Assembly: GCA_977017645.1 (NCBI GenBank)
Contig: OZ360230.1
Coordinates: 38,626,001 to 38,690,000, forward strand
Reading direction: 5' to 3'
DNA length: 64,000 nucleotides
Source of the DNA: Torpedo marmorata
Taxonomy: Eukaryota
Part shown: piece after piece, positions 281 through 62,873 of the stretch
Numbering within the stretch: the first letter of the stretch is position 1
Layout: each line of letters starts with the position of its first letter
Translations under genes and position numbers: made by a program
Notes under the pieces: model-generated
Database searches by the model: none
Told to the model about the DNA's origin: nothing
What the model saw: only the letters and a program-made list of their open reading frames with translations

Positions 281-534
281 GAAATGCTGGAGGAACTCAG
301 CTGGTCTTTTCAGCATCTATAGGAGACAAAGATATATTGCCGACATTTCAGGCCTGAGCCCTTCTTCAAGGAAAAATCAGAAACCTTTTCTGATTTTTAC
401 TTGAAGAAGGGCTCAGGCCTGAAACGTCAGCAATATATCTTTGTCTCCTATAGATGCTGAAAAGACCAGCTGAGTTCCTCCAGCATTTCGGTGTGTTTAC
501 TACAATCACAGCGTTTGCAGCCTATCCTGTTTCA
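281..534. mobile_element. Short fold-back (inverted) Penelope-like element 3'-end insertion with hammerhead motif in both arms
   Basis: About 105-bp near-perfect inverted arms centred near 384; right arm about 42 nt longer; flanked by 17-bp direct repeat ctcaa(c/t)caaaagatacc (264-280, 535-551); arms are homologous to the 3' end of the PLE at 62700-62873. Confidence 0.85.
401..428 (+). ncRNA. Minimal hammerhead ribozyme-like motif (PLE type)
   Basis: TTGAAGA-A-GGGC TCAG GCCT-GAAAC-GTC: core variant of CUGANGA, stem II, GAAA, palindromic ACGT and GUC triplet. Confidence 0.6.
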
Positions 535-2112
535 CTCAATCAAAAGATACCACCTTCAAAAGTTCAGCATTGTCTCTGCTCTTCACTAAAGCATTAGCTG
601 TTTGGAATGTTTTTTTTAAAACAAGCCCTTGGTGATCTTAATTACTCATTCTTTGAATCAGTTTTCTTTTCATCTTCCATCTCTGAATCAACTCAGAACA
701 TTTATTTACAACTTCAGAACATGTGCATTATATACTTCATGGTTGGTGGTGATGAAGAAGATGACGATTAACAACAATGCCTGGAGGGGAATAGTTCCAC
801 AGGGAATATCACATGAGGATAAAGATGTCGGAAGGCATCCGAGTGGAGAGAGGAAAGGGAATTGCAAAGACTTAGGCATTATTCAAATTTGGCAGCACTC
901 CCCTGAAAGGTGACATGTTATACAAACACTCAATGAAATCTTCATTATATCAACAAATGATCCAATCAGCCCTTCTGACTTCTGGCCAGATTAACTACAA
1001 TTTCATTCGGAATCCACAACCAGTTTTGACATTCTGCCCATGGCTGCTGTCCATGTTGTGAGTTGGGATTGTGTAAAGTTGCAATTACACAAATGCATGT
1101 CAATATATTTATTTTTTCCCTTTAGGTGGGGGTGGGGTTGGGGGGAAGGGTTTGCACAGAAAGTACATATTGTACCTCCTGAAATATGTTGACAATTCTG
1201 AATGATCTGTTATTATTATGTATTATTAAAATAAATCCTGCCAGAATAAATGCTTCAACAGCTGAAACTCAGATTATTTATATTGGCAATCAGAGTAATA
1301 ACTCACCATTTCTATATTATTAAAGTAGAGAAATTTATCAAGACATTATTGAAAAGTTGTTAACACTGGTTTCCCTTGTGGCCGGCAGCACAGTATCACC
1401 ATGTACCCCCAACACTTCAATCATCTATCACCCAGTTCTCCAGATGGCCTATCATCTTTATCACTCCCAGGTTGGTGACATCACCTGTTTTCCCATCTGA
1501 AATTGATGATGAAAGCAAACAGATCTATCTTGCTTACATTTACCAAATCAATTTAATTTTACAGGCCCAGAGTTGGTGGCATATTGACAGTTTGTGTTAA
1601 TGGAACCTACTGTGTTTAGTGCCTGGAAGAGACCTCTTTAAATATCAACCTTGCATAATGTGGCATTTCATAATAAATTTTTTTACAACATATTTACTTA
1701 ATGGAAGGAATTATGGCTCCCTGTCAGAGCAGCAATTAAACATATCGAGGACTTTTCAAGTTCTTATCTTTCTTCCTCCTCCTTTAGTCAAAAATATATT
1801 TATCTCTCTTCTTCCTCCCGCGGGGCCAGTGTCTCATAACTGCTCTAAGTGCATCGAAGTAAAGTTACCATAAATTAAAGCCTCTATAAAAAAATTGAAA
1901 AAGTTATTTTCATTCCTGGGACAGTCAGTTATAAACAAAGTAATGAGATGACAGTTGTCTACTAAACATGTTGAGATAACTAGAAATGCAAGGGCAGAGT
2001 CAACATATTGAAATGACCATATTGATACTTTTGAATTTAAAATTATACTAGGGCAAGAATTATCTTTGGAAAATAATTATTTCATTAAAACCCCAAAGGA
2101 TTCCTTACTGTT

Positions 2113-2380
2113 GGGTGGCACGGTTAGCGTAGCAGTTAGCGCAATGCTGTTACAGCGCCAGCGATCGGGACAGGGGTTCGAATCCCACGCTGTCTACAAG
2201 GAGTTTGTACATTCTCCCCGTGTCTGCGTGGGTTTTCCCCGGGGGCTGCAGTTTCTTCCCACCCTTCAAAACGTACCAGGGGTTGTAGGTCAATTGGGTG
2301 TAATTTGGCAGCACGGGCTTATGGGCGAAAGGGACTGTTACCGTGCTGTAAGTCCAAATTTTAAATTTTAAATTTTAAAA
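2113..2380 (+). mobile_element. tRNA-derived V-SINE (HE1-like)
   Basis: A/B-box-like head (ggcacggttagcgtagc...ggttcgaatccc), V-domain ggagtttgtacattctccccgtgtctgcgtgggtttt, LINE-like tail ending in (tttaaa)n. Confidence 0.85.
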
Positions 2381-3184: not shown

Positions 3185-3553
3185 ATCATGCATTTATAAT
3201 GGTTTATTGGATATAAGATCAGCCTCTATGGCTGGGATTAAGAATGATTGGGAACGTGATTTGAAAACAACATTTTCAGATGAAGATTGATATCTTACTC
3301 TTAGCTTGATTAACGCTTCTTTATTTTGTGCAAGACATTGTTTATTACAATTTAAGGTGGTACATAGAATCCATATGCCCAAACTTAAATTATCTCATTT
3401 TTATGCAGATATTGATCCACTATGTGAGAAGTGTAACATTTTTGAAGCCTCACTGATTTCTATGTTTTGGGAATGCCCAAATTTAGAGAGATTTTGGAAA
3501 GATATTTTCCAAACTTTATCAATGATTTTCAAGATTAAAATAGAACCATGTCC
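3185..3553 (+). mobile_element. Inverted 5' segment of the same L1 (ORF2 zinc-knuckle region)
   Basis: LLQFKVVHR...PLCEKC...MFWECPNLERFW...KIEPCP, which directly precedes the IA(L/P)FG motif that opens the minus-strand segment. Confidence 0.8.
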
Positions 3554-3715
3554 AAAACCAATCTTCCAAGTGAAGCAACATTTCACTTGTGAATCTGCAG
3601 GAGTCATATACTGCATTCGGTGCTCTCGTTGTGGCCTTCTCTACATCGGAGAGACTGGACGCAGACTGGGAGGTTGCTTTGCTGAGCATCTTTGCTCTGT
3701 CCGCATCAATGACAT
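3554..3715 (+). mobile_element. Penelope-like GIY-YIG endonuclease fragment
   Basis: FQVKQHFTCESAGVIYCIRCSRCGLLYIGETGRRLGGCFAEHL, homologous to 62200-62350. Confidence 0.85.
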
Positions 3716-4815
3716 CAACCATGGAAAATTAATTTAAATTTGAAAGTATGCTGTGACTTTAACAATCAGGCTTCAGGATAATTAGTTGCATACTTCACCA
3801 GCACTCCTCTCCGCACCTACCCCATCTCTTTGTTTTACACTCTCCACCCTTTTGGAGTTTTGGAGACCTTCTGAATGCTTGGTAAAACATTATTCATCTC
3901 AACAAGTCCTTGCTTCCATCAAAGCCCCACTGAAGCTTTCCTCCTACCTTCCCATTCTAACTCTTATCAGCATAACTGGTTTCTTCTCCCACATTTGGTT
4001 ATTCCACCATTTCCCTTGAACAATCACAGAAATTGCAGATTTCTACCACTCTTGGTAAAGAAAATATGTACCAAAATTTTGCAACTGAACCACGTTTTCA
4101 ATAACCATACACAAGTTTCACATGTGCAGTCTTAATATATGGGCCAAGACATGATGGAATTCTTAACACACTGATGTAAGATTTAGAACCCTTAAAACTG
4201 GTTAGTGTTGGAATCAGTTAACACAAGTTGAGATAAAACTAGGAAATGCTCATGGCTGGGGCAGAGAGAGGGAGAGAGAATAAAATTATTATGAATAGCA
4301 TGAACCGATTGGAAGGCTTCACTATCATTGGCAGATCTATGACCAAATTTATTAAAAGTCCTTTTCTTCCCTCTTGTTGGTTGTTGCAGTCAATTTCTTT
4401 CTTCCCAATCACTGGGCCACACAGTGTATCAGCACTCAGACTTCACTCTATCCACAGTAACTCCCCACCTCCATGACAAACTGCAAAAAGGTTTGACCTA
4501 TACCCTAGTCCTGTGACCCCGCCCAGACCTTCTTGTTCAATGTGTTCTTCAACTAACAATACCTGATTAGATAATGCTTCGTGCTGGCCTTAAAAATGAG
4601 ATGAAAGCTTAAATTTATGACTACAAATCCAGAATAAGGCAAGTGCACTCTAATCACACTCAATTGATTCCCTGTTGGGCTAAACGTGCCATTTTCATTT
4701 TCAAACTTCATTCTGCTTTCAGTTCATCTTATTTACTATTTGTCATTCCCACTGCTCATCACAGGCAACTCTTTGGTCAGGCGTTTAATTTTTGACCCAA
4801 TCGGTTAACAGATAA

Positions 4816-5015
4816 GAGTGAAACACGAAAGTCTGCAGACGCTGTGATTGTAGTAAAAACACAAAAATGCTGGAGGAACTCAGCAGGTCTTGAAGCAGCC
4901 AAAGGAGGTAAATATATATAACCAACATTTCGAGCCTGAGCTCTTCTTCAAGGTATGTAGGTCTATGGACACTGCGGGGCCTGCTGAATTCCTCCTGCAT
5001 TTTAGTGTTTTTACT
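4816..5015. mobile_element. Short fold-back PLE 3'-end insertion
   Basis: Long minus-strand arm (gagtgaaacacgaaagtctgcagac...cttcttcaagg) plus shorter inverted arm lacking the terminal ~35 nt; TSD degenerate (gtt..agataa). Confidence 0.8.
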
Positions 5016-5070
5016 AAAGTTGTTAGATAACATTAATTGTGAAATCAGATATTGTAACAAAGTGACTTAA

Positions 5071-5302: not shown

Positions 5303-5507
5303 TTAAAATATATATTCCACCTTCTGGCTGGGTCCACAGAAGTCTGCTTTGGGTTCAGGTGATGATGTACTGAAGTTATGCAACAATAATAGAAAAAGGT
5401 TCTGCACCTTGAGATTGCAGCAAAGAAATCCCCTCGCTCAGCACGTAAGCAGTTTTGTGCATTTGCATTTCTATTCCTGATGTGAAGTGATATTTCTCTC
5501 TGGATAG

Positions 5508-5750
5508 AATTTAATTTAGACATACAGCACGGTAACAGGCCCTTTCGGCCTACGAGCACGTGCTGACCAATTACATCCAATTGACCTACAACCCCAGTAT
5601 GGTTTGAACGGTGGGAGGAAACCGGAGCACTCGGAGGAAACCCATGCAGACACGGGGGAACGTACAATCTCCTTACAGACAGCGTCTGATTCGAACCCCG
5701 GTCGCTGGCGCTGTAACAGTGTTGCACTAAACTGCTACGCTAACCGTGCC
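5508..5750 (-). mobile_element. V-SINE (HE1-like)
   Basis: Reverse-complement homolog of 2113-2380. Confidence 0.85.
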
Positions 5751-6361
5751 AGAATTGATGAAAATAAGACAGATTCCTTGCGGAAAACCCCTATGTCAGA
5801 AATTGATCTATATTTTAAATTTTATCCAGGTCATTTTATTTCAGACTGGAGTATGACTTCCATTTCTGACTATTTTTACCCAAATGAATCACAAAGAATT
5901 AAATGATCCAAAACCCCACTGTGATTTCTGAAGCAATTTCATCCTCATGGTAATCATTTAAAGAGCAGCAACAGTGAAGGTTATTGATGCCCCCTACTTT
6001 GCCAATATCTTTGTCAATATACCATGCAATGACCTGCATCACACTATCATCATGTAATCAGAGAACATCACAATGGGAAATGCTTTGTAAATTATGATGT
6101 CCTTTCAATGAGAAATATTACATGCCTTTTCTGTCCTGTTTGTTATCTTTGGGAATGTCAAATTGACCCTCGAAGGATTGAATTATTTAATTACAGTGTA
6201 ATTAATGAAGCTTTTTCATTTTGTTTTTCATGATGTAATGATGTAGAGCATGATGAGATGTCTGCACAAACAGCACATAGCATCGTTGTGACAGAACATT
6301 GTTTTGACTTCTTTCCTTCAAAGAAAATCACTTTAAAATTAAATGCCTACTGAAATAGAAC

Positions 6362-6685: not shown

Positions 6686-9456
6686 TTTGTCTTTGTGTTT
6701 CTTCAATTACTGATGGTTCGCTTGTCTGCTGTGTTCCTCTGTGTTCAGTTCACAAGTGCTGAATACAATTGTTGAATTGCATTGAAATGTGACTTTTTCC
6801 ATATTGTGATGTTTCCTTTTGCAGCTGAGCACTCATTGAGATTACATGATGATGAACTGGTGTATACTCAGCCTTAACTGCCATCCACACGTGAAATAAA
6901 ATCTCTTTTTGTTTCCTAGTTTATCTTCAGAAACAAGTAAACTTTCATCTTGAACCTTCACTTTTACCTGGTTATACAACATCAATCTCACTGAAATGCT
7001 GCATTAAAATGATGATTGTTCAAAAGGAATGGTGCAACACCTTCCAGTTCTGGCAGTGCATTCTCTGATACATATCATTGTATATCCATGTCCCTGCTTG
7101 GCATTTAAATACAAGAAATATTAATTTCTCAGATCATTTAACAGTTTGGAATCTTCTGTGCAATTTCGTTGGCCAGATGGATTTATGCAATATAATCCTG
7201 TGAAGGATATTCAGGTGGTTTGTAAGTCTTCAATTAATGTACGTCCCACTGTATCCTTGTAAACTCTACGGTCCCATGACCATCCAAAATACTTATGCCT
7301 CTCTAATTCCTGCATCTTGATCTTCCTCCAACTTAATTGCTCCCTCAGAGGCGGCTGTCTCTTCAGTTATTGGTGCATTAAACACTCGAATTTCCCTCTT
7401 AAACATTTTGGCCTCTCGATCCCTCTTTCTGCCATTAAGATGTTTCTGAAAACTTACATCTTTGAGCAAACTTTCCTTTTCATTTCATAATATATTGCTG
7501 AAGTATTTTAGAACATTTTTCATTGATTAAAGTTGCTGTATAAATATAAATTGTTATTGTTCCTGCTTTTTAGAATATTTAAGAGCACATATTTAGCATA
7601 ATCTTCTTAGTAGTTAATAGCTGAAATATAAAGATTACCAGGTGTCATTGCTGCATGATATATAACATTTATTTTCTGCATAATAGGAGAATGATACGCT
7701 TATTCAATGTCTTGCATTTGTAAGTACTTTGTAACAATACATGCATCGTAGGTTGTCACTGCAGTGTATAAAGCCAGCAAGTAAACAGTGATCAGTTGGA
7801 TTCAAACAGAAAGTAGATTTATGTTGTGTTGTAAAGGTACCTCAATGAAAGACACCTTCTAATCTGCATTCTATATGTTATTCTTTTTACATATCTTTGG
7901 AAATTGATTTCTAATATTTCAAAAAATAATCGCTGTTTTGTGTTGGACCAATCTACACCTTGTGTCCACCTTCCTCTATACAAATGTCATGGTTGAACTA
8001 ATCTTTTTCAATTAATTAATGCTGGTTGCCATTAACAAAGGACATTATCATTTTAAAATACATAACTGATGTAAAATAATTAAAGTCATTAGTATTAATT
8101 AAAATAAATAAAAACTTCACTTACCTGCACTTACCTTTCTAATCCAGTTGGGTGACCTCATTGAGGCAAATGGGGCTAAGAAATATATGTCTGCCAAAGG
8201 TGGCATAAGGCTGGGGGCCAGATATAAACTGCATCCAATCCCTCACTCAGCAGGTTTAAGTGCTGTCCTTGGAATTAGTGCTGAGCTCTGCAATGTCCCC
8301 ACAGTGAATTGTTGCCTTCCTTGCTACAAAGCTGAGGTATGCAAGAAGCAATAGCCTGACCCATTAGCCTGTGGTCCTCTCCAGAACCATTGGCTGAAAA
8401 GGAGTAAAATCTGGGGCAATAAAGTTGACAAATCAGTGTGCTATGCCGTATGTTGGCAACATATGACAATCAGGAAAAATTGCAAAGAGGCTGGATTCCA
8501 TATTTGAAAAATTAATAAGGATATAAACATAAAGATGCTTGCTTTCCATATGCAGAATGCTATTTTTACCTGGTGGCTTTATTATGATTATATCAAATAA
8601 TTAAACCAGCCATTACGACATGCTGTATTAACAGGTCCACTGCCACATTATTATCAATTGTTAGTTATTACACTATTATATATCTGGAATCAGAAATTGA
8701 TCTTCATACAATGAAGATCTTCAATGATCTTCATACAATCTGCACCAACCATCTAATAATTTTTAGGTTTCTGATCAGTTAATAGGCATTGCTGATGGTA
8801 CATTTAATAAAAACACTGGATATGAAGTGAAATCAGAAAAGAATTGTAGACACAAATTTAGTTTTGGCTTAAGTTATTATGTAATCATTATTGAGGCACA
8901 TCCTCAGCATCGTTTCCAATCGGGTTTTAAGGGTAAACTTTTTCAAATGGGCTCATTTCCAGAAGTATTTGTAGTACTTTAAAGGACCTAAAATACCAGA
9001 TTATTGGTATTAATATTAACCCAATATTAATGGGTTAAATTTTCATCTTGCCATATAAATGACTGCATAAATCAGCTAACTATGATCTCTGGCATCTCTT
9101 TTGTATGGTTGAGCAAGCTGATATATAGATGCAAAGCTTTTTTTATTTCTCTTATAAAAATGATTTGACTGGATAGATGTTAGGATAGCCAATTTTCAAC
9201 ATTAGTTCTACATTCTATACCAAACAAATATGCTTTCCATCAAAGTACCAAATTCAAGTTTTATGCTTCAGTTATAATGAGATATAGAAGACTGTTTAGT
9301 ACACCAACAGAATGACAACATTTGAAACCTAACTACTCTTGGATATTTGTGTTACACATTTGAAAAATACGTTCCAAACCAGAAATTTCTCCAAATAACA
9401 CATACCACTTGGCTGAAACAATGGATATTTGAAACTGATAGAAATTATGTGCTTAC

Positions 9457-9794
9457 TTCCCAGCCTTGAGAAGGATCCTTCAGGCTCGACAATTCTTCTC
9501 CAACATAAGGGCCAAGCTTTTCACCCACTTCAATCTTTCTCTTTGTCCATATTCCTAATCCAGCACCTGGAATGCTTGACTCACGGAGTTCGAATTCTGG
9601 TGGAATGGGAATATCATCAGGAATGTAGATGGGGGCTTTGTAAGGGGAGCCCCCCTTTGGTGTAAAGTCTTCATTAGAAGTGGCAGGTGAGGAAAGGTCA
9701 TGGGCACTGAGGGACAGATGTCCTGTCTCATCATCAGCATTTGGCTCCTCTTCCCCTGCAGCAGCTGGGTATCCATCATACAGGTTGCCATCAC
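9457..9794 (-). CDS. MECOM: MECOM (MDS1-EVI1/PRDM3) coding exon 2: N-terminus and start of PR/SET domain
   Basis: Acceptor tttttctgtttag|GTGATG and donor TGGGAA|gtaagc; 338 nt, phase 1 to 0, open: [112 protein letters not shown]. Residues [32 protein letters not shown] favour MECOM over PRDM16. This frame is absent from the ORF track. Confidence 0.93.
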
Positions 9795-10066
9795 CTAAAC
9801 AGAAAAAGGAATTTGAAATAAAAGAGTTAGTGATTGCAATCCAAAGATCATAGTCAAAATGATGATTTGATATTGCATTGAATCATGAGTGGTTGCTCTA
9901 AAAATAATGAGAATCTCAATCAAAGTTATAGATTATCAATCTGAATATCAACAAATATCTGGGCCTGAAGTGAACAATTGGCAGAGGAAACGTGAGATAA
10001 AGAATGAGACTCAAAATTCTTTTGAGTAGATGGGCATCAACAGTTAATCATCTACTTCATATTCAA

Positions 10067-10283
10067 CAGAAAAACAAAGACTGCAGATGCTGGGATCTTG
10101 AGCTAACAATGAGCTGCTGGAGGAACACAACTGGTCAGGCAGCATCCGTGAGTAGAAATGGTCAGTCAATGTTTCAGGTCGGGGGTTCTGATAAACGGTG
10201 CTGACCCAAAACATTGACTGACCGCTTTTGTGCATAGAATCTGCCTGATTTGCTGAGTTCCTCCAGCAGCTCATTGTTTGCTT
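10067..10283. mobile_element. Short fold-back PLE-related insertion (diverged subfamily)
   Basis: Inverted arms (gagctgctggaggaac...tcagtcaatgtttc / aaacattgactgacc...gttcctccagcagctc); left arm ~34 nt longer; 12-bp TSD cttcatattcaa (10055-10066, 10284-10295). Confidence 0.8.
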
Positions 10284-13070
10284 CTTCATATTCAAGTTTC
10301 TATCTTCATATTCCCCACTCTAGTGACTGAGTCGCTCCCTGGATCTAAACTGGGGGAGTCTGAAGATAGAAACTTGATGTGAAATTGACGATAGGGCTAT
10401 AAACAGTAAAAAGAAATAGGGAAGAAAATATCTGGTTTGTCATCTTTTAGATTAATCATTCATAAAGTATTAATGAACTCTACACTATTGTATTCTAAGC
10501 TTCGCCATATATGTTATAAAATCATGCATTATTTATTGGCAAAATAAGTGAGTTTCACAGTGGCAGTGCCAAAACTGTGTTGACAACATCTCCTAATAAT
10601 TGACTGAACAAAGGGTTCAAATATTTCCTCCTTAATTGAAGTATTTTGTAAAGTATAACAGATTTAATCTTGGAAAGACCTTATTAAACTACACAAAATG
10701 ACAACTTGAGTAAATGCATCAGGAGTAATTAACATTCGGATTTGATTGTTGCATTCCTGCTATCCTTTCACAGCAAAAGCTCAACAGCTCCGAAAGAACC
10801 TTAAAATATGAGAATACTTACACACCAAAGATTCAAAATAGCACAGGCTTAAAATAACTACTTCATATTATCCTACTATTTAATATTATCAGTGTCTATT
10901 AGATTCTATACAAATTAGAGGATGCATTGCCAGCATTATGATTTTCCCTGTAAAAATGAACTTTGAATCTGATCCAATACCATAATAGGTTTTGCTTTGG
11001 TGAAGGGACATCTTCTCTGCCAGTTGAATTCCTGAAAATATGCTGTTTTCATATTCCTGCCAATTTCAGCTCCGAGTACCAAAGATATAAATCTTTTCTA
11101 TTAGGCACCCTATTGGTCCATTTTCTCTCAGTGAAGTCATAGAAATCAGTGTAAGTCATCATGGCTGGTATCATCAATGACCTCCCTAACCCACAAGTGC
11201 TATCAGCTGCTGCTTCCAATGTATAATTTAAAAGTCTAAATTCACAATTCTATTCCCTGGATGAAAGTCATCCATACTACTTTCTCCTTTATGTGACAAT
11301 GAAGCTAAGTTTCAATTACTCTAAAGATCCCTGGAACTCTTTTATTACATGCCATTTGAAACCTGTTTTTTTTCTATTAAAAGATTCTCAGTTGAAAAGA
11401 TTTTCACTGAGCACTTGCCTCAGGTTTGAAGCTCAGTGAATGTACAAAGAACTCTTTCACTCTTTGTCTTGCTTTAAGGTGGTCCTCACAACAATACATA
11501 AAGTTCCATTTAACTACCGTATTTTTATACCATTTCAGTGGTTATAAAGTAGAGGGGAAATGGACTTTCTGGATAGCTCTATAATTGGTGGGAATTTCTA
11601 GATGGTCTATGACAATTTTACCACCGTGCTTGCTACAAACCAACACATTTTTGTAAGTTTCATGTTTATAGTTCATTCCTTGGATACTTTGCTTCAGGCT
11701 AAGGTGACATGCCTAAACCAACTAGGATGGTGACATGATCATCGTCACACTTTCACCATCTGCAGGCATTCTGTAGCGTGGGACTGCTTTCCTTCACTAC
11801 TTTTCCTCTTCACTGTAATCACAGCGTCAACTTCAAGAGTTGTCCAGCTGTTTGTTGAAGATCCATTCAGTTCAGACAGATGTAGACTACAAACTGGATC
11901 ATTGCCTAATTTCTTGTGCTGAACCAACTATCAACCAAGCAGCCAGCTGTGCAGCCTTGATCATTAGATCCAAGCAACTTGGCATATTCACTGTGATAAA
12001 CTGATAGGAGACCAGCTTACATGGCAGATTGTTCCAGGAGTGTTTAAATAACATTGATTTAGTCTCAGCAATATTAGGAAATATTACAGCAAAGTTTCCA
12101 CAGAATGTCTCTTTTTTTTTGAATGTTCATATGACATAAAGGAAACATTCTTTTATGTCGGTGACCGTCAGGAGATACTGACTTGAGTAAAAAGAAATTG
12201 GCAAGCTCCTGTTGTTTTGACGGAAAGATGGTGTCACAAAAATTGATGGGGTGAAGTACCTTGACAGAACTCACACTGTCAGATCATGCGTTTTAAATAA
12301 GCGAGCTAAAAGGTCTCAAGTGCTTTTACATGAGTTTGTTCCAGTTACACTGATGTGACAGTGCAAATGTAAGACAGAACCTCAGACCAGGAGGCTGCAT
12401 CTCAAGATCAAATGCTGGGGCCCGATTACTCAAATTCATGCTTCCATCCAGGAATTTTGGTTGAAAATTCAGTGAGAGCGATGAGTGTGATTATTCAATA
12501 GTTTACATTAATTTGGAATGTTCTGCCCAGCCACCCCAAGCTTTCCAATGTGCAGACTTGTCAGGTAAAGTGACCTGACATGTGAAAGTGGAAAATTCTC
12601 ACTGTGACCTGCATGATTAAAATGCACTACTAAGCACTATCAAAGTGATTTATAATTAATATTTTCTAATGCACTGTTATTAACTTTGGTTTCTGAGTAG
12701 TTTATTTTTGCTTTTATTTCTCTCCTCCATATGGAGCCTGTATTGATCAGTAGAAATTCATAACAATTCACAGTTGACATTGATTCAAATCTTTACAGAT
12801 TTATAGTTAAGTTTCTCCAAGTGGTGCAAAATTTGTACAATCATTTCTCCAGGTTTCCTGCTCCTACAGATTCTCCCGGGCATCTCATTCTGCTTGAAAT
12901 GAGAGATGAGAATGATGTTATCAAGCAGAGAACTGAGGACTGTAAGAGTGCAATCACTTCATCGCTCTTCGGTGAGCTACTTTATATGAAGGGCATCACA
13001 AGCGAGCCCCATCCTGCCTTCACCTGCTTCTGCAGCAGGGAGTTCTGAGTTGAATTACTGTGAATCATTT

Positions 13071-13485
13071 GAGTGAAACACGAAAGTCTGCAGATGCTGA
13101 GATTGTAGTAAAAACACACAGAAATGCTGGAGGAATTCAGCCGGTCTCGCAGACTCCATAGGAGGTAAAGATATATTACCAAGGTTTCGGGCCTAGCCCT
13201 TTGTTCAAGGTATAAGCAAAAGGCAGGCAACCATCTTAAATCAAGACAAGAGATTAAGGCGGTAGAATGCAAGGGGGAGGAGTCCAGACTTAACTGCCAA
13301 AAGGTGTTAATTGGATATGATAAGAGGAGGGGTGAGAATTGATTTTGGCTCTGTGAAAGGAGACAGAGGAAAAAGGGAGAAGAGAGAGAGAGAGAGACAG
13401 AGCCAGGGGAAAGGCGGCAGGGGAAGAAGATGGGGGGGGGGGGGCGGGGGGTGGGTGTTTTAATGGAAACCGGAAAAGTCGATGA
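13071..13485 (-). mobile_element. PLE 3' UTR fragment (pyrimidine-rich UTR, hammerhead region, 3' terminus)
   Basis: Same terminus gagtgaaacacgaaagtctgcag; ends at ccggaaaagtcgatg (IDFSGF, the end of the PLE ORF). Confidence 0.8.
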
Positions 13486-13726: not shown

Positions 13727-13727
<1 letters not shown>

Positions 13728-43640: not shown

Positions 43641-44429
43641 ACAAACCATGCCAAGATTTCAGTTATTGCACCACTTTCTTTGCACTTTTTGAGATATGCA
43701 AATTTTGCTTGAATTTATTAATGGATTTCAGGTTTGGATAGCAAAGCCAGCATTTACTACAGTACACTTTTTTAAAATGCCCTCGAGATGTATTGGAGAG
43801 ACACCTTCCTGAATCGCTGCAGTCCTTCTGATGAAAGTGTCCACAAAATGCAACATATAGATACAGCGACAACGAAGGAAAAATTTATACATTTCCAAGT
43901 AAGGATGGTGTACAACTTGTCGTGCCAACATGAATGTAGCATTGTTCCTATGTATGAAATGCTTTGAAATGTAACTTTAAAAAGTACCCTGGAGATGGAT
44001 TGCTGTAAGTAATATTATTTTTTAAATAGCTTTTTATTTAAATACAGTTTGCTCACAAGTGGTGAATAACTGACTGTGAATAAAGGTACTTGTTTTGTGG
44101 CAGTTTTATCAAACTATTGTAATTTAGCACATTACATCAGAAGTTTTTTTCTAAAAATGTTGTAAAATTCTGTCCGATTGCATTGGCCAATGGCTGATTT
44201 TACATCTGATGCTGATTTTAATTTGAGGGAAAGAGATCTTCCAGATACTAGGATGATTTTGGGAGCTATTTGCACTAAGTTCACTGATTGCATCTAAGGC
44301 TGAAACTCCAAACATCATTATGTTTACATCATTACTTTTTCAGAGACACTGAAATCTAGCCTTTTCCCCATGCAATCTGCAACAATAAACTTCCAGGGAG
44401 GCAAACTAATCAGTCATTTACTTCATGTC

Positions 44430-48864: not shown

Positions 48865-50652
48865 CCGTATATTTCGGCGTATAAGTCGAGTCTTGAAACC
48901 CTCAAAAATCTCTCAAAAAACGGGGGTCGACTTCTACGCTGGATATACTTTTGAGACCTTAAAATCAGCTCAAAAACCACTCCACGGCGATTCGGCGTAT
49001 AAGTTGACCCTTGAAAACCCGATTCAGCGTATAAGTCGACCCGTGAAACCCGATTCGGCGTATAAGCTGACCCGTGAAAAACCAAAAAAAAACCCGACTG
49101 CAACAAATTTTCATTGACATTTTTATTGAAAACAACAAGACATTTAGAACCCTTCAAAATAATTTTCGCTATCATCGTCTGAGGCAAAGATCTCGGCAAG
49201 CACATCCGGAATCTCACTGTTTAAACAGTCATCATACGGGTCCCAGTCTGTATCTGATGAGGCGGCTTCACCTTCGACCCACAATAAATCATCTTCTGTA
49301 CTGTCAATTGCACAAGAGATACCGCACTTTTTAAACGATTTTATTACAGTCTCTACTTTCACTTTGTCCCATGCCTTGAGCACCAAGTCACACAGCACAT
49401 CAAGCGATGCAGCACGCATTGCCCCGCCTTTTGTAAATGATTTTTCTGCACTCGACATCCATGTATTCCACTCTTCACGCACATGGTCTTTGAATGGCTT
49501 GTTCAAACAGACATCGAGAGGTTGCAATATAGACGTCAAACCACCTAGGATAACCACCATGTAAGTATTATGGTGATAATCTACTTTTAGTCTTCTCAGT
49601 TAAGTGGCTACGAAACATATCCCAGACCAGCAAACTCCGTTCCTTGCATAAACCGCCTGTTCCACACATTGTCTATCCATAGTTTACACCATTTTCATCC
49701 ATCCATCCTTTTTCATGGAAATGTACAAAAATACCTGCAGGGAATTTTATTTTAGGTTTAAATTTACGTTTGAAGATTATCATGGGTCTTAACTTTGTCC
49801 TGTCGGCCATGCACGATAACACCACAGTAAACCTGGTCCTTTCATGGCCTGTACTCCTGGTTTGCACAGTTTTCACACCTTTCCATTCCACTGTTCTATT
49901 GCCTATCATGTCAAAATTCATGGGGGTTTCGTCCATGTTTCCAATATTTGCCAATGCAAACTTGTGTTTCTGCTGGTTACGTAAAATAAACTGGTGAAAA
50001 CTTACAACTTTATGATCAAGATCTTTTGGTAGTTTCTGAGCAATTTTTGTTTTTTGTCGTAATACCAGATTTTTCCTGTTCATGAAACGGTTGCACCAGC
50101 CTACTGTAGCTTCAAAATCATTACTGAGTTCTGGGTGCGACTTTGCCCACTTCAGTGCAAATGTTCTTATTTTATTTCGGGTGACTATGTAGCAATCTTG
50201 CCTCTGTTCACGTACCCATGCTGCGACATGATTTTCCAACTCTGGCCAATGAGTGATTCCTCTTCTCATCGAACATTGCCTTTTTGGTATTTTTCTTAAA
50301 GTATCTTCTTTCTTCCTCCAATCTCTTACCAACTTCTCATATACATTAAATTTTCTTGCAGCAGCACAGTTGTTGGTTTTCTTGGCCATTTCTATCACTT
50401 TTAATTTAAAACTCGCCTCATACTTTCGTCGTTTCAATTGAGCCGCAATGATAACAATCACCTCCAGCCAATGCCCAGCAGCTCAATCAGCGTGATCGTT
50501 GTGGGTCGACCTATACGCCGGTCAACGCCCAGCAGCTCAATCATCGCAATTTTTGGGGGTCGACTTATACGCCGGATATACAATAAAACCATTAAAATGA
50601 AGCTGAAAAAGGGGGATTATCTGCGAGTCAACTTATACGCCAAAATATATGG
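48865..50652 (-). mobile_element. pogo-family (Passer/POGK-like) DNA transposon, both ends present
   Basis: TIRs CCGTATATTTCGGCGTATAAGTCGA / TCAACTTATACGCCAAAATATATGG; TA TSD (48863-48864, 50653-50654); subterminal CGGCGTATAAGTCGAC repeats at both ends. Confidence 0.92.
49144..50461 (-). pseudogene. Frameshifted pogo transposase (Brinker-type DBD, CENP-B HTH, DDE_1)
   Basis: RRKYEASFKLKVIEMA...AAARKF...VRDWRK; WCNRFMNR; catalytic motifs NMDETP, LLVWDMFRSH (between the two ORFs) and LQPLDVCLNKPFK; acidic tail. Confidence 0.9.
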
Positions 50653-52412
50653 TAAATACATTTTCATTAGTTAGCTAGCAGACAAAGCTCTATCTGGAGT
50701 ATAATTTGCAATTTAAACTAAAGGTCAGCAATGGATTTAAGGGAACACACAGCACATATACTCTGCTGTTTTAGAGCTCAATAAAATATGGATATGATTT
50801 ACATGTTTAACTATATATTCATTTACTTGGAAACTACTCTGACTTACCCTACCTCCCCCATTTCCATTCTTCTTTCAAATACATCAGTGAAATTATATTG
50901 CTCTATAAGTAGCAATGGATATAAAATTAATTGGATTTACAATTGAGCTAAACTATTAAAATGACATTGGAGCTATTACAACTTTCTTTGACAATCTCTG
51001 GATTCAGAGTGAAGGTTATGATGCATTTTTAATGTTCAAGGTTTTGACCCTCAAAGTAAATGAAAAGAACACACGAGGAAAAGAGATGTCAAGAGTCACA
51101 GGTGCAGTTTTAGGATTCCTAAAGCCCGTGGCCCTATTGCTGGAACCATATAGCCTGCAGGTGAGATAAATGGTCCCCTGCTGCTGTTAGGCATGCCATG
51201 AATGATACCTCCAGCAAGGCCCTGTGACTAGAAACTAGTCAGCCTTGAAATTAACATCCTGAGGAAAACCTCTTTCTCCCCTCCAGACAACAGCAGCTTA
51301 AGAGAAAAACAACAGATGACAAAGAAGGTTCAGGCAAACAGTGGGGAAGTTACATTCTGTGTTGGAGGAAATGTTTGTTTTTCTATCTCAGTTATGGCAC
51401 TGTGCTTCTAGAGGTAGATAATGCCTTTGGCCAATGGGGGTGATCCCATTGCTTCCTGTAACACACGCACAGCTGAAAGTACAATAAAGGATGGAGACCT
51501 TTGACACTTTAAAGAGCCTTCAATTCAGAGCACTGGGTGTAATTAAATATGCTGATTATTCACCTTTATGCAACAAAGTCTATTGGTAAATCTGATAAAG
51601 GAAGACTGAAGACTCACTCTGCACAGAAAAGGGAAAATCACAATGACATTCATGGAATATTTTTTGATGCTAGAAATATGTCCTAAAACACCTTCTATAT
51701 TCTCCAACCAAAATATTCATAATGGGCTTCAGTCCAAAACAGTAGCTGATGCAAACATTATTCAGGCTAGAATGATTTTAGTAGGGAGGCATGGTTTATT
51801 ACACTCAAGTTTTCCATGCCAGATAAGACTTAGATATTAAATTGATTGGCCACATTTGCAGAAACTTAAGTTATGCAGGTTTACTCTTCAATGGTCTGTA
51901 GACAATGCATACAGGCCTGGCCTTAATGTCATTGCATTCAGGCTCAGCAGATTTTATTGCCTAATTTAAAGAATCATTTTACTTCAATCTTAATACATAT
52001 ACTCAAATAATTTACAAATGCTTCTTATTCTTGGATTGACCTTGTATTTTTCTGCAACCAAAACAGAACACTGCTCTAACCTCCAAAGATCAGCCACTTT
52101 GTAAGAAACAATTGTATTATTGATAAAGGCACTTATATGTCAGAACAACCTTTCTTACTATAATATTAACAATTAAAACAAATGTCAAATATCTGTACAA
52201 TTAAGAAAATGAAGCTGCAGGAAATTAAATTGAAAATACACGTTAATTGTTCTGTATAGAGAAAAGACTGGCTGTGACATTTCAGGTGTATGTTCTATTG
52301 TTATGGGTACTAACTAATATGCTTTTTGTATTAATCTAGGAGGAGTCATTGCCAGGTTGTAACAAAAACTGCTCATCAAATTTGCCTTTTACCGAGGAGT
52401 CACCAAACTTTC

Positions 52413-52557
52413 GGAGTGAAACACGAAAGTCTGCAGACACTGTGATTGTAGTAAAAACAGAGAAATGCTGGAGGAACTCAGCAGGTCTCACAGCATCCAT
52501 AGGAGGTAAAGATACAGTATATAACTGACGTTTCAGGCCTGAGCCCTTCTTCAAGGT
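52413..52557 (-). mobile_element. Solo ~145-bp PLE 3' module (hammerhead plus terminus)
   Basis: Minus strand ccttgaagaagggctcaggcctgaaacgtcag...gactttcgtgtttcactc; 8-bp TSD aaactttc (52405-52412, 52558-52565). Confidence 0.85.
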
Positions 52558-54067
52558 AAACTTTCAGCAAGTTTAATCATTATTAAAGAGGAAGAAAATT
52601 GTATTTATCACCACTCGTTTCAGGTTGCTCCGGAACATTTCAAGGTCAACAAAATACTATTGCCACCAAAATGTGTTCTGCAAGCTCCCACAAATGGTGA
52701 TAAAAGAACCAGCCATGTAGTCTGCATTTTTAAATTGGCGTTTTTTGGCATTGCCTTTGTTCAAAGTAATGTTGTGAGACCTTTTAGGTCCACTTGAAAG
52801 GCAATGACATTTGGTTCAACTTCTTAACCAAAATCTGACATCTCTGACAGTGGAGGATTTCTGCAATAGGGTTTATGTGGTCAATTCTCCATTGGGGCTT
52901 TAACTCATAATCTTCCAACACAGAATCAAATCTGAATGCAATGAACGATGCTTAATGCAATGGAAGTCTTTCTTTACATTTTCACGTTATCCTTACCATC
53001 AATATTCTGTCTTACTAGTACATCCTGACAAACATTCATACAGGTGCATCCACACATTCAGATAATGGAGCATTTCCAATTTAAAATCTTGGACCAATCC
53101 CAAAATTGTGAATAACTGAAACTTTTGTTGGATTACATTTTAGCCTTTATATTACTTGGCTTCCCATATAACAGTAAATTTGAATATTTCCCTGACCTTT
53201 CTCTGCTGTAGTCTGCTCCATAGTGCAGTCCCTCTTGGTGGTGAGGTGTTTATCAAATAAAGAAGTGGTCTCTTGATGATGAAAAGTGATAGCCTGGAGT
53301 GCAAGGCTCACGTGGTTATCCCATAAGCAGAACCACGATCAATTTTGCTGTGCTCTGGTGAAATACCAGGAAATCTGGTATGTTGGCAATCTGATTGTGC
53401 CTTGTAAAGTTTGTTTCTTGTCTGTGATGCCCCGATGATTAAGGCATTGAAGTTTAGTTCCTGCCTGTCAGCATCACAGCCACGGCTTGGTACAGACCCA
53501 GTTGGAGACCAGCATCCAACTGACTTCTGGAAGTACCCTGGATTTTCAGATGAGATTTCCACCATGAAATTTATGTTATTCTATGATGTGTGCCTCATTA
53601 ATGCATTTAGTAATAGGACAGGGTTGGAGGGACACCATTGTTGCCAATTGAATTCATAGTAAAATCTGGAACTTACTCTGGCAAACTAGCACCAACCAAA
53701 AAAAAGTTGTAGCCTTGGAATGATATTGCTAGTTGTTTATTTTGCTGTTATTGATTTTTTACTGCTTCTATTATTGGCCAATTTTTGTATTGAATCTTTA
53801 TTTATCTCATTTGTTTTAGTTTCAGCTTCAGTGACTGTCAAGGCTTCTCTAAGTCATTACTTTTGAAATGTAATCATTTGTAGCTAAATGGAGCAACTAG
53901 CTTTCACACAGCAAGGTCCCATCAAGAACAACATTGTCATTACATGTTCATCTATTTTCAGTGGAGTTCAATGTGAGGAAAACATTGAAAAGACCACGAG
54001 GATAGGTCTCCTTGAGGAGTGCTGTGGCAACTTATACATAAATGAGTTGCCACTGTAGCCTAGATTA

Positions 54068-54685
54068 CACTGGACAACAATTTTTTTTCAAAAGGTTTGC
54101 TTCCTGAAAAGAAATTGGGGATTATGATAGACAACTTCAAGCTGAACTCAAAGATAATTTCAGATTTGCTATATCATGTAGGAAGTTGGAGAAACATTAA
54201 ATTAACTTTTATTGAATTTGGCATGTTTAATCGCATAATGATGCTGACACATTGCGTTAGTTCAACTGACCTAAAAATGTTTTGCCGCTGATTTTCATTT
54301 GTACTCAGCATCTGATGCCTCTTGTGTCAGTATCCAACAATAGTCTGCCAGCATTGATTGATCCCAATTGCCCTGATACCGCTTTTCCATCGTCACAATG
54401 TCCTGATGAAACCTTTCACCATGTCCATCACCGACTGCACCAAGATCAGCAGGGAAGAAGTCCAAGTGCGAATGCGGAAGATGAATTTTCAATGACATGT
54501 TGCACTGTATGGTTTTGTAAGCTTGAAGTAGACTTAAAATATGACAGGAAATCACAAAAATAGGTTATATCTAAAAACAACGGTACATAATAGGAAAATT
54601 TTAAGGTAATTTTCATGCTCAGCAGCCCAAAATCCATAAAATACACCCAAAAGTGTTCAGGAAGCAAAGTCTTCGCTGTCCAGTG
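54068..54685 (-). mobile_element. Chapaev3-like non-autonomous DNA transposon
   Basis: TIRs CACTGGACAAC / GCTGTCCAGTG; 3-bp TSD tta (54065-54067, 54686-54688); transposase C-terminus CNMSLKIHLPHSHLDFFPADLGAVGDGHGERFHQDIVTMEKRYQG...MLADYCW. Confidence 0.75.
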
Positions 54686-58675: not shown

Positions 58676-59325
58676 CTCCTGGGGATAGCACATCGAGGCA
58701 ACTGTTAAAAAGGCACACCATGCCTTTTACTTTCTAAGGAGTTTGAGGAGGTTCTGTATGTTGTCAAATACTCTGTTCAACTTCTACAGGTGTACATTGG
58801 AATGTATACTGATTGACTGCATCACAGCCTGGTTTAGAAACTTGAATGCCCAGGATCACAGAAAGGCTGCAGACAGTGGCAGACTTAGCCAAGTCCATCA
58901 GAGGCACAGACCTGCTGGCCACAGAAGATACCCATGTGTGGCGTTGCCTCAAGAAAGCTGGCATAACCATGAAAGACCCCTGTTACCTTGCTCTCTTCTT
59001 GCTGTTACCTTCAGGCAAAAGGCACAGAAGTCTGAAGTCCAGTACCACGAGGTTCAAGAATAATTTTTTTTAAACAGGTATCAGGTGCTTGAACCCCCGT
59101 GCATGACCCTTATCACAACACTACTCCAAGACCACCACTAATCTGTCTGCACTACTGACTCAGACCTATTTTTACACTTTGACCAACTGTGAATATTTTT
59201 ATCCTCTTCGTTTTATATTATGATCTTTTTTCTCTTCTTCTGTGCTGGTGATTTATGCTCCTGGGAAGCTACAAGAAAGCGTTACATCTGCACATTGCTC
59301 TTGTGTATACGGCAATAAATTTAAA
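58676..59325 (+). mobile_element. Rex1/Babar-type LINE 3' portion
   Basis: FNFYRCTLECILIDCITAWF...LLPSGKRHRSLKSSTTRFKNNFF. Confidence 0.8.
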
Positions 59326-60141
59326 CCTGCATTTTTTGAATTTTATGGAAAAACAAATACAGTTTTTCTTCACTACTAATGCTTCTCCAACTATTTCTAA
59401 TCTGATTGTATGGGACACTATGAAAGCATATCTGAGAGGGCAAATTATTTCTTATACAGCTAACATAAAGAAGAGGACTAATAAGGAAAGATTGGAATTA
59501 ATTAATCAGATTAAACAAATTGATTTACAATACGCTCAAGATAAAAATCCTGATTTATATAAAAGGAGACTTGAACTTAAAACTAAATTTGATCTTCTTT
59601 CTACTTATCCTATTGAACAGCAACTTTTGAGGAGTAAGAGTCAGTTCTACATTCATGGTGAAAAGTCTGGTAATATTTTGGCTAGCCAACTGAAAGGAAT
59701 GGCTGCTAAAAGACAAATTAATAAGATTCGGATGGGAGATGGTACGGAGACTACTGACCATTCTAAAATAAATGATACCTTTAGAGGATTCTATTCCAGA
59801 TTGTATACTTCTGAATCTAATAAAGATTGTACTTCAATGTGGGATTTTCTGGACTACCTTAATCTGCCTACGCTTTCTCAGAATAATTGTACAAGTCTGG
59901 AGGCACCTATTTCTCAAGAAGAAATATTATTGCCAATTTCCTCTTTACAATCTGATAAATCTCCAGGACCTGATGGATACCCCGTTGAATTTTATAAATC
60001 CTTTTCCAAATGGCTTGTGCCTCATTTAAGTTCAGTGTTTAATGATTCATTTAAACATAGGAATCTTCCATTATCTTTTAATGAAGCTTGTATTTTTCTT
60101 ATTTTGAAAAAAGGGAAGGACCCTTCTGAATGTGCTTCTTA

Positions 60142-61640
60142 AAAAAACACAAATTCTGGAGAAACTCAGCAGGTCAAACAGTGTCTTTTATGTAGCAAAG
60201 GTAGAAATACATAACCAACATTTCGGGCTTGAGCCCTTCATCAAAGTATGAGAAAATGCCGGCAGGCGTCCGAACAAAGGAGTGAGGGGGGAAGGGGGAT
60301 GGCAAAGGCAGGAGATGATAGGTGGAGAAAGGAGGGAGGGGACTACAGCAAAGAGAGGGAGGAGGGATGGTTTGGTAGCTGGAGAAAAACAGGAAGGACA
60401 GGTGAGGGGGGAGGGGAAGGGAACGACAAGCAGGTTTAGTGGAAAGCAGAAAAGTCAATGTTAATGCCATCTAGCTGGAGAGTGCTGAGACGGAATATGA
60501 GATGTTGTTCCTCCAATTTGCGGGTAGTCTGGGTGGGATAGTACATGAGGCCATGGACAGACATGTGAGTGTGGGAGTGTGACCCGGAATTGAAAAAGTT
60601 GGTTACTGGGAGGTCGCTGTTGTTGCGGACGGAGAGGAGGTGCTCAGCAAAGCAGTCTCCCAATCTACGACCGGTCTCTCCAATGTAGAGAAAGCCACAA
60701 AGGGAGCACCGGATGCAGTAAATAAGTTCTCTGGATGTACAAGTGAAGTGTAGTTTCACTTGGAAGGCCTGTTTGGGGCCCTGGACTGTGGTGAGGGGGG
60801 AGGTGTGGGAGCAGGTGTTGCACTTCCTGCGGGCACAGGGGAAGGTTCCGGGGGTGCGATGGGTGGGGAGGGATGAGTGCACGAGTGAATCGCGGAGGGA
60901 GCGGTCCCTACGGAAGGCCGAGAGGGGAGGAGAAGGAAAAATGTGTCTGGTGGTGGGATCCTGTAGTAAGTGCCGGAAATTCCGGCGGATAATGTGTTAG
61001 ATGCGGAGGCTGGTGGGGTGGTAGGTGAGGATAAGGGGGATTCTATGTTTGTTGCGTCTGGGGGCAGAGGGGGCCAGGGCAGATGAGCGGGAAATGGAGG
61101 AGATGCGGGTGAGGGCTGAGTTGATGGTGGTGGAGGGGAAGCCACATTTGTGGAAAAAGGAAGACATTTCAGAAGATCTGGGGTGGAACACCTCATCTAG
61201 GGAACAGATGCGGCGGAGGCGGAGAAATTGAGAGAAGGGGATGGAGTCCTTGCAGGGGACAGGGTGTGAGGATGTGTAGCCCAGATAGTTGTGGGAGTTG
61301 GAGGGTTTGTAGTAAATGTCGGTGGAAAGCTTGTCTCCCGAGATGGAGACAGAGAGATCCAGGAAAGGGAGAGTGTTATCGGAGATGGACCAGGTGAGTT
61401 TGAGATCGTGGTGAAAGTTGGATGCGAAGTGGATGAAGTTGACAAGCTCATCGCGGGTGTATGAGGCAGCCCCGATGTAGTCGTCAATATACCAGAGGAA
61501 GAGATGAGGGGTCTTGCCTGTGTAGGCTTGCAGCATGGATTGCTCCACAAAGCCCACAAATAGGCAGGCGTAGCTGGGACCCATGCGGGTACCCATGGCT
61601 ACTCCTTTGATTTGGAGGAAGTGGGATGAGTTGAAGGAGA
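60142..61640 (-). mobile_element. Penelope-like retroelement, left arm (RT C-half, GIY-YIG, 3'UTR)
   Basis: QIKGVAMGTRMGPSYACLF...WYIDD...FLDL; IYCIRCSLCGFLYIGETGRRL; one internal stop near 60997. Confidence 0.93.
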
Positions 61641-62873
61641 ACTCCCACAACTATCTGGACTACACATCCTCACCAACTCCCACAACTATCTGGACTACAC
61701 ATCCTCACACCCTGTCCCCTGCAAGGACTCCATCCCCTTCTCTCAATTTCTCCGCCTCCGCCGCGTCTGTTCCCAAGATGAGGTGTTCCACTCCAGATCT
61801 TCTGAAATGTCTGCCTTTTTCCACAAACGTGGCTTCCCCTCCACCACCATCAACTCAGCCCTCACCCGCATCTCCTCCATTTCCCGCTCATCTGCCCTGG
61901 CCCCCTCTGCCCCCAGACGCAACAAACATAGAATCCCCCTCATCCTCACCTACCACCCCACCAGCCTCCGCATCCAACACATTATCCGCCGGAATTTCCG
62001 GCACTTACTACAGGATCCCACCACCAGACATATTTTTCCTTCTCCTCCCCTCTCGGCCTTCCGTAGGGACTGCTCCCTCCGCGATTCACTCGTGCACTCA
62101 TCCCTCCCCACCCATCGCACCCCCGGAACCTTCCCCTGTGCCCGCAGGAGGTGCAACACCTGCGCCCACACCTCCCCCCTCACCACGGTCCAGGGCCCCA
62201 AACAGGCCTTCCAAGTGAAACTACACTTCACTTGTACATCAAGAGAACTTATTTACTGCATCCGGTGCTCCCTTTGTGGCTTTCTATACATTGGAGAGAC
62301 CGGTCGTAGATTGGGAGACCGCTTTGCTGAGCACCTCCTCTCCGTCCGCAACAACAGCGACCTCCCAGTAGCCAACCATTTCAATTCCGGGTCACACTCC
62401 CACACTCACATGTCTGTCCATGGCCTCATGTACTATCCCACGCAGACTACCCGCAAATTGGAGGAACAACATCTCATATTCCGTCTTGGCACTCTCCAGC
62501 CAGATGGCATTAACATTGACTTTTCTGCTTTCCACTAAACCTGCTTGTCATTCCCTTCCCCTCCCCCCTCACCTGTCCTTCCTGTTTTTCTCCAGCTACC
62601 TAGCCATCCCTCCTCCCCCTCTTTGCTGCTGTCCCCTCCCTCCTTTCTCCACCTATCATCTCCTGCCTTTGCCATCCCCCTTCCCCCCTCACTCCTTTGT
62701 TCGGACGCCTGCTGGCATTTTCTCATTCATTGATGAAGGGCTCAAGCCCGAAACGTCGGTTATGTATTTCTACCTTTGCTACATAAAAGACACTGTTTGA
62801 CCTGCTGAGTTTCTCCAGCATTTGTGTTTTTTACTTCAACCACGGTGTCTACAGATTTTCGTGTTTTACTTCT
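61640..62873 (+). mobile_element. Penelope-like retroelement, right arm (thumb/linker, GIY-YIG, 3'UTR, full terminus)
   Basis: Open frame to ...LYIGETGRRLGDRFAEH...RKLEEQHLIFRLGTLQPDGINIDFSAFH* (stop at 62538); near-identical inverted copy of left arm; 15-bp TSD tgaatgtgcttctta (60127-60141, 62874-62888). Confidence 0.93.
62730..62757 (+). ncRNA. Minimal hammerhead ribozyme-like motif in PLE 3'UTR
   Basis: TTGATGA-A-GGGC TCAA GCCC-GAAAC-GTC; mirror copy on minus strand at ~60217-60244. Confidence 0.65.

Follow-up and report, generated by a model that had tools for sequence, protein, structure and literature searches.

Head-to-head insertions of a Penelope-like element in a Torpedo marmorata contig join one long and one short 3′ end

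The 64,000-nucleotide stretch of Torpedo marmorata DNA considered here (assembly GCA_977017645.1, contig OZ360230.1, forward-strand positions 38,626,001 to 38,690,000; hereafter the window) carries five fold-back insertions of a Penelope-like element (PLE), in each of which one arm has the full 3′ terminus of the element and its inverted partner stops early. An initial annotation of this DNA had described the same arrangement, and self-comparison together with an inverted-repeat scan recovered every one of the five structures where it had placed them. We name them E1 to E5 from left to right and call their halves the tailed and the short-ended arm. Their parts, with the flanking target-site duplications (TSDs) and, in E5, a reverse transcriptase (RT) and part of an open reading frame (ORF), lie at the following window positions, the shortfall of each short-ended arm being given as ‘nt short’:

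264–280: E1, left TSD copy; its first three bases are also the last three of the element
281–383, minus strand: E1, short-ended arm, 45–48 nt short; the TSD end matches the skipped template at seven of nine positions
387–537, plus strand: E1, tailed arm, with a hammerhead-like motif at 401–427
535–551: E1, right TSD copy
4816–4957, minus strand: E2, tailed arm, with a hammerhead-like motif at 4951–4925
4963–5016, plus strand: E2, short-ended arm, 35 nt short; central junction common with E4
10055–10066: E3, left TSD copy; right copy at 10284–10295
10067–10184, minus strand: E3, tailed arm, of a divergent subfamily; inner boundary approximate
10187–10283, plus strand: E3, short-ended arm, 33 nt short, apparently starting some 15 nt upstream of where its partner does (by eye, from alignments)
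25248–25258: E4, left TSD copy; right copy at 25459–25469
25259–25313, minus strand: E4, short-ended arm, 35 nt short
25316–25458, plus strand: E4, tailed arm
60127–60141: E5, left TSD copy, within the ORF of a long interspersed nuclear element (LINE); right copy at 62874–62888
60142–61639, minus strand: E5, short-ended arm, 40–41 nt short, with RT motifs; 61335–61639 has no counterpart in the tailed arm
61640–62873, plus strand: E5, tailed arm, beginning with a 35-nt tandem duplication (61640–61708)
61630–62538, plus strand: PLE open frame, 3′ part of the ORF, encoding an RT thumb, the CX4CxxC linker and, C-terminally, a GIY-YIG endonuclease
62730–62756, plus strand: minimal hammerhead-like motif of E5, upstream of both 3′ termini (75 nt to the short, 115 nt to the long one)

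The five fold-backs are old, genuine insertions of a Neptune/Nematis-type PLE. As had been claimed, TSDs of 11–17 bp are clear in four of the five (E1, 17 bp with one mismatch; E3, 12 bp; E4, 11 bp; E5, 15 bp; comparison with about 3000 random flank pairs gives p ≤ 0.0007 for each), with E2 the exception, since its flanks at 4804–4815 and 5019–5030 share 6 exact bp (p = 0.17) or 9 of 12 (p = 0.14) and are not significant. Removal of E5 and one TSD copy in silico leaves the frame of the host LINE open across the site. Arm-to-arm identity is 100/103 in E1, 1123/1158 in E5 (23 transitions and 12 transversions) and 74–90% in the cores of the older three, and this divergence of 3–26% between arms marks them as true insertions that differ in age. 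E1 forms an almost perfect hairpin whose loop is 3 nt long. All five have the inverted pseudo-long terminal repeat (pLTR) form, and no direct partial tandem occurs within the window. The size range of 10-fold and the two or more subfamilies originally described stand insofar as the fold-backs span about 200 to 2730 bp and the window copies comprise at least three sequence types (core identity between copies 60–88%), but E5 is the sole large one. The duplication at the centre of E5 is a perfect one and probably reflects slippage at joining; its length equals the tail offset, which may be chance. Directly to the right of E3 lies a 25-bp inverted repeat (92%; 10292–10377) whose left arm repeats part of the E3 TSD.

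That the five insertions are independent, as was also proposed, holds for four demonstrably distinct junction types, but E2 and the reverse complement of E4 align without gaps through a common centre (about 193 nt colinear at 80% identity), and because of this common junction the two are possibly not independent. At the centre itself 6 of 8 positions mismatch, against about 80% identity elsewhere, and we lean, without considering the matter settled, towards separate events at the same two stop points over descent from one fold-back. Both inner breakpoints are common to E2 (4958–4966) and E4 (25311–25318), where the short arms begin at the start of a predicted long helix with the tail.

E5 codes for the 3′ half of the PLE ORF, the N-terminal half being missing from the window. 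RT motifs lie in its left arm and the GIY-YIG core in both arms, consistent with one ORF in which the RT is followed by a GIY-YIG endonuclease (EN) at the C terminus. The CCHH motif of EN+ PLEs, with two cysteines lying between GIY and YIG, is present, in the form of CxxCxxC within the GIY-YIG core and conserved histidines H235, H250 and H256, and the CX4CxxC linker stands between RT and EN at residue 170 of the frame; linker and core cysteines occur together in 146 of 192 homologues retrieved. A Pfam scan made directly on the three E5 frames returned no family, and 72 longer homologues (E ≤ 1e-20) bear RVT_1, PF26215 and in some cases also PF01541 (GIY-YIG). The nearest named proteins come from rays and sharks at 59–70% identity (Mobula 70%, Rhincodon 65%, Hypanus 65%), which suggests an elasmobranch host. 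Since a CX2-5CxxC linker marks Neptune and Nematis, and the Penelope/Poseidon clade is described as having no linker zinc finger (PMC8557442), the window element belongs to Neptune or Nematis and Penelope/Poseidon is excluded. The vertebrate PLE clades reported are Neptune and Poseidon (bioRxiv 10.64898/2026.07.22.740005), which would favour Neptune over Nematis. The earlier recognition of these elements as PLEs, and of the extra piece as their known tail, was borne out.

A hammerhead-like pattern with stem II gave six matches, all within these arms, against 0.07 in 100 shuffles. The matches have U at core position 3, and an Rfam scan returned no hammerhead match in the window; its microRNA matches were rejected, their scores being far under gathering level and reflecting the E1 palindrome. 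The motif resembles the minimal hammerhead described for PLE pLTRs (PMC4209133) and is a putative ribozyme. Seven arms (near 387, 4957, 10187, 25316, 52557, 187 and 43058) begin 0–14 nt upstream of the hammerhead core, such that 5′ stops cluster. These arms contain the whole core, so the RNA that served as template had not been cleaved, and the clustering could come from RT stopping at the ribozyme or from a non-autonomous unit of short length.

A 3′-end profile search of the window found 16 arms at E < 1e-5, ten in E1–E5 and six elsewhere, whose end positions we counted from a conserved CCAGCA anchor. Tailed arms stop at +52/+53, with the E3 subfamily at +48 and E1 at +49 or +52, depending on the three terminal bases that it has in common with its TSD; the solitary copies at 13071 and 52414 also reach +52/+53. 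The short-ended arms of E1 to E5 stop at +4, +17, +15, +16 and +12, and five ends inside 13 nt have p = 0.0004 against a uniform spread over 140 nt (p = 0.003 for four). Of the two termini, the long one is sharply placed and the short one loose, over 13 nt. Among the 16 matches there is no long/long or short/short fold-back, and no poly(A) follows the long end of any tailed copy in the window. When ends are defined by the TSD, the shortfalls are 45–48 nt in E1 (39 only if the 7/9 match is counted as element), 35 in E2, 33 in E3 (36 with a longer TSD), 35 in E4 (39 without the last bases) and 40–41 in E5. The constant asymmetry of 34–42 nt originally proposed does not survive this, the range within the window being 33–48 nt and three insertions from elsewhere, described below, giving family-specific values of 32, 42 and 58 nt.

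That both ends might be copies of one motif, spaced by 35 nt, we keep as no more than a lead, as the match is significant in E5 only (11/13, p = 0.008) and not in the other six of seven tailed arms. Lag 35 is the top of the summed repeat profile (46 against a mean of 26, standard deviation 7), but the copies are related, and a repeat at this lag is not evident by eye in the families from outside the window. The template of PAc, a Poseidon element of the anole, has by eye GAAAG (+66, +100) and ACAAC (+75, +111), with the main start site at +111–118 (PMC11167929, Methods).

Microhomology at the short-arm junctions, said initially to be frequent, is convincing at E1 only. Strict exact matches to the skipped template at the four TSD-bounded junctions number 3, 0, 0 and 0, a sum of 3 against 1.4 expected (p = 0.18); adding two junctions from outside the window gives 5 against 2.2 (p = 0.11), with none at four of the six. 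The 7/9 match of E1 has p = 0.002 before correction for four junctions. If the best register is chosen at each junction, the total rises to 8 against 2.4 (p = 0.006), or p = 0.066 without E1. Outside the window, L003:4210 shows 2 nt and L003:2248, if a 4-nt deletion is allowed, a 5-nt match. The initial annotation had expected short ends to be clustered and microhomology to exceed random expectation; checked in the window only, the ends are indeed clustered, not uniform, but the strict microhomology totals are not above chance. At E5, the four bases before the right TSD (62869–62873) equal, with a one-base shift, the four before the left TSD (60123–60126), and together with the three common bases of E1 this hints that the two youngest insertions show pairing at the long end too.

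The window holds further PLE copies, among them a probable sixth fold-back that was missed at first:

31762–31919: probable sixth fold-back, with a tail-only left arm and a short-ended right arm; TSD decayed (31762–31783 and 31897–31919, gapped, p = 0.012)
about 31783–31809, minus strand: its left arm, tail only, with a 12-nt exact tail match found in 0 of 3000 random windows
31811 to about 31897: its right arm, short-ended, abutting the tail-only arm
13071–13484, minus strand: solitary copy with a long end; inner boundary approximate; no significant TSD in a search for one
52414–52557, minus strand: solitary copy with a long end; 8-bp TSD at 52405–52412 and 52558–52565 (p = 0.014)
99–187, minus strand: solitary old copy with a short-type end at about +12; TSD not significant (p = 0.08)
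38877–39237, plus strand: solitary copy ending at +5 where a repeat resembling a short interspersed nuclear element (SINE) abuts; end type not scorable
43058–43158, plus strand: decayed solitary copy fading within the tail; end type not scorable, TSD not significant
3550–3713: internal GIY-YIG PLE fragment without a 3′ end, inside a LINE-like frame, with a 7-bp flanking repeat (p = 0.16); possibly captured during break repair
22153–22607, minus strand: decayed PLE endonuclease fragment

A scan of a prokaryotic genome collection yielded eight more loci (L001–L008) in two metagenome-assembled records. Their low GC, microsatellites and young PLEs under ‘bacterial’ records suggest animal DNA carried along, and two PLE-like proteins under bacterial names (P0156 and P0184) may be the same type of carry-over. 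Three fold-backs in two of these loci were scored, the other six loci not being scorable, and in each of the three a long end is joined to a short one:

L003:2818–4210: linker type, 13-bp TSD; a 29-nt arm of distal tail only (2818–2846) and a 1.36-kb short-ended arm, with no shared sequence; offset 58 nt
L003:193–2248: no linker seen in the open frame, 12-bp TSD; offset 42 nt
L008:2096–3232: a 79-nt tailed arm and a 1.06-kb short-ended arm; offset 32 nt; no significant TSD in a search for one
L001, left out of the count: stops some 15 nt past the hammerhead, at neither of the two sites
L002 and L004, left out: long ends, the other side cut by the contig end
L005, left out: inverted arm long-ended, partner without a 3′ end
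L006, left out: long end, other arm cut
L007, left out: single copy, end type not scorable

Further inverted repeats in L002, L003, L006 and L008 have no hammerhead or PLE match and were left out of the scoring. From the outside cases it follows that long-with-short pairing spans families, apparently also clades, and that the offset is family-specific. The centre of the fold-back without a visible linker (L003:1096–1338) bears extra direct and inverted duplications of 60–105 nt, which suggests repeated template switching at the join, and a further hammerhead-like motif between (TA)n runs at L001:4739 is possibly a remnant of a different PLE family.

Taken together, a long end is paired with a short end in nine of nine scorable cases (the five named, the probable sixth and the three outside), or in eight distinct junctions if E2 and E4 are counted once, which has p = 0.004 under an assumed 50:50 arm choice. 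Arms overlap in all five named cases and do not overlap in two insertions, those at 31.8 kb and L003:2818–4210. The short-ended arm holds upstream sequence that the tailed arm lacks in E5 (305 nt), in E3 (about 15 nt), at 31.8 kb, in L008 and in L003:2818–4210. A fold-back copy could hold nothing absent from the tailed arm, so the E5 short arm excludes simple fold-back copying. In E2 and E4 the tailed arm is the longer, which means that neither type of arm can have served as template throughout. Solitary copies, too, occur with both end types (long at 13071 and 52414, short at about 99). Two complementary DNAs (cDNAs), separately primed and independently stopped, cover all arm-length classes, and we therefore favour twin target-primed reverse transcription (TPRT), with one start per site, as the origin of the head-to-head insertions. 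We put the probability of this reading, taken jointly with the view that primer–template pairing is occasional (E1) and not required, at roughly 0.6. The initial proposal of two separate priming events at two RNA positions is to that extent the best reading of the data; a start at the true 3′ end of the RNA is, by analogy with PAc, the only PLE studied in vitro, probably wrong. Under twin TPRT, each of two staggered target nicks would prime its own cDNA, one starting at the sharp downstream site and the other some 35 nt upstream at the looser one; both sites are likely to lie within the RNA. Both priming events would belong to a single complex that makes one start per site, the cDNAs would stop independently and their 3′ ends be joined by repair, and the stagger of the nicks would set the 11–17 bp TSD.

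Inverted duplications are a known class of artefact, and chimeric fold-back reads in the library or assembly could in principle have produced these. Arms that are 3–26% divergent with an excess of transitions, TSD flanks and the clean split of a LINE frame by E5 refute this, and we regard the chance of an artefact as negligible. It is also very improbable that a tailed cDNA folds back, copies itself and stalls about 35 nt before its own start. Such copying suits the symmetric E1 and, with their longer tailed arms, E2 and E4, but it is impossible for E5, 31.8 kb, L003:2818–4210 and L008 and unlikely for E3, and E5 refutes it as a general mechanism. The long colinearity of E2 and E4, centre included, and the many arms that begin just upstream of the hammerhead motif could instead mean that the short fold-backs were copied from a few preformed non-autonomous palindromic masters, whose asymmetry they inherited. 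We find this improbable, because E1, E3, E5, the insertion at 31.8 kb and the three outside cases all differ in their centres, the mismatched centre of E2 and E4 suits separate formation at one hot spot, and the origin of the masters would be left unexplained.

The version put forward in the initial annotation, in which one cDNA starts from the real RNA 3′ end and the other from an internal site picked by microhomology with the target end, accounts for a sharp long end and a loose short end and draws on the E1 match, the best-register total and the matches at L003:4210 and L003:2248. With strict microhomology at chance both within the window and with the outside junctions added, four of six junctions showing none, no poly(A) behind any long end, and both start sites of PAc in vitro being internal and not homologous to the cut DNA (PMC11167929), we consider it quite unlikely. 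Somewhat less so, though still unlikely, is the main rival, a pathway that begins with self-priming, perhaps with an antisense strand as template, to give an inverted intermediate, one end of which the endonuclease cuts back by a set length as the intermediate is resolved into the target (PMC8557442, PMC3846280). This explains one-end-only tails directly, trimming of either end suits all arm-length classes, and the hairpin form of E1, with its tiny loop, speaks for it. Against it, genomic tail boundaries map onto RT start sites in a 2024 study (PMC11167929), solitary short-ended copies exist, and the tail-only arms at 31.8 kb and L003:2818–2846 would need a fold-back within 30 nt of the cDNA start, from up to 1.4 kb away.

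Several points weigh against twin TPRT itself. The case for it in the window element is built from genomic DNA, and the element studied in vitro is a Poseidon, of another clade, for which no start-site difference between top and bottom strands is reported, such that strict pairing is not thereby predicted (PMC11167929). The sample is small, with seven of the eight outside loci coming from one record and E2 and E4 possibly representing one event; the 50:50 null is an assumption; no significant TSD flanks E2 or L008 and that at 31.8 kb is weak; and the anatomy is equally that expected of a preformed hairpin trimmed at one or the other end. RNA folding gave no support for a conserved structure at the two sites, with z from 0.37 to −1.55 and a covariation term of 0.05 for the consensus fold. 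The consensus contains, likewise without support, a small hairpin whose loop holds the short site, and single RNA folds were no better than shuffles in seven of seven arms.

More tentatively, at somewhat short of even odds, the two start sites may be obligately coupled, with a PLE dimer clamping the 3′ domain of the RNA, its two RTs divided between the sites and its two endonucleases between the target strands, and with tail length as a family-specific ruler (32–58 nt). Every inverted insertion would then be a long-plus-short pair made by twin priming. We infer such coupling from the nine scorable cases and their eight distinct junctions. The PAc protein is predicted to be a dimer, via its N-terminal region (PMC11167929), and that region is absent from the window. 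Obligate coupling, if true, would in a single step account for the inverted form of the pLTRs, for the tail at one end only and for the TSD, in Neptune- and Poseidon-type elements alike.

Other features of the window are the following:

48855–50662: Tc5/pogo-type transposase frames (BrkDBD, HTH_Tnp_Tc5) between 38-bp inverted ends
16968–18248, 40548–41800, 19705–20204 and 58728–58838: members of a LINE family that has RVT_1 and ALKBH8_N domains
2116–2372, 5505–5751, 29361–29600 and 39234–39481: SINE-like family of about 250 bp (labelled by appearance), one copy abutting the PLE end at 39237
43293–43644 and 54115–54468: inverted pair of 354 bp, 91% identical, 10.5 kb apart
9445–9882, minus strand: frame similar to a PR-domain exon of the MECOM/PRDM16 type; if it is one, the window lies largely in introns of that gene

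In twin priming of the L1 retrotransposon, two target nicks each prime a cDNA, leaving a 5′ inverted segment within one TSD. L1 uses an APE endonuclease, its first cDNA starts on the poly(A) and its second at a variable internal site, and the arms do not repeat. The window insertions work like L1 twin priming and are not members of that class, as both PLE starts are fixed near the 3′ end, overlap between the arms is usual, poly(A) is lacking and the endonuclease is of the GIY-YIG type.

Closer relatives are the published pLTR ‘tails’ of Penelope/Poseidon, Neptune and Naiad, where an inverted, 5′-truncated copy likewise lies head to head within a TSD and a 30–40 bp extension is found, often at one end only (PMC8557442, PMC3846280, PMC2377424), with a 34–37 bp repeat in D. 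virilis (PMC2377424). In the descriptions cited, the tail is optional or frequent, whereas here it is one-sided in every scorable case, and one outside family with a 58-nt offset and the two insertions with non-overlapping arms go beyond them. How PLEs make their inverted structures is still called undefined (PMC8557442). For PAc of Anolis carolinensis, Frangieh et al. 2024 (PMC11167929) found in vitro that both target strands are nicked and extended and that RT starts at the two internal sites, with the tail as the stretch between. PAc resembles the window element in its RT and C-terminal GIY-YIG, a hammerhead (in the window a hammerhead-like motif) upstream of both ends, a tail bounded by two sites (starts in PAc, genomic ends here) and AT-rich targets, and differs in belonging to the Penelope/Poseidon clade, which lacks the CX2-5CxxC linker of the window element. 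The genomic ends in the window appear compatible with the two-internal-start mechanism of PAc. The accessible text of PMC11167929 does not address inverted insertions or a coupling of the two sites, and in the open-access literature, subscription literature being outside the scope of our search, we found no proposal of twin priming or obligate pairing for PLEs. Since the asymmetry and its two-start basis are published, the finding as first written would be no surprise to a specialist. Strict long-with-short pairing and non-overlapping arms provide an inexpensive test of the twin-priming model, which, if true, would clear up one stage in the life cycle of those retroelements that stand nearest to telomerase, and show annotators where PLEs end. 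Set beside these known systems, in which the one-sided tail and its tie to two internal RT start sites were already established, the new elements here are the strict pairing and the non-overlapping arms, a modest mechanistic refinement.

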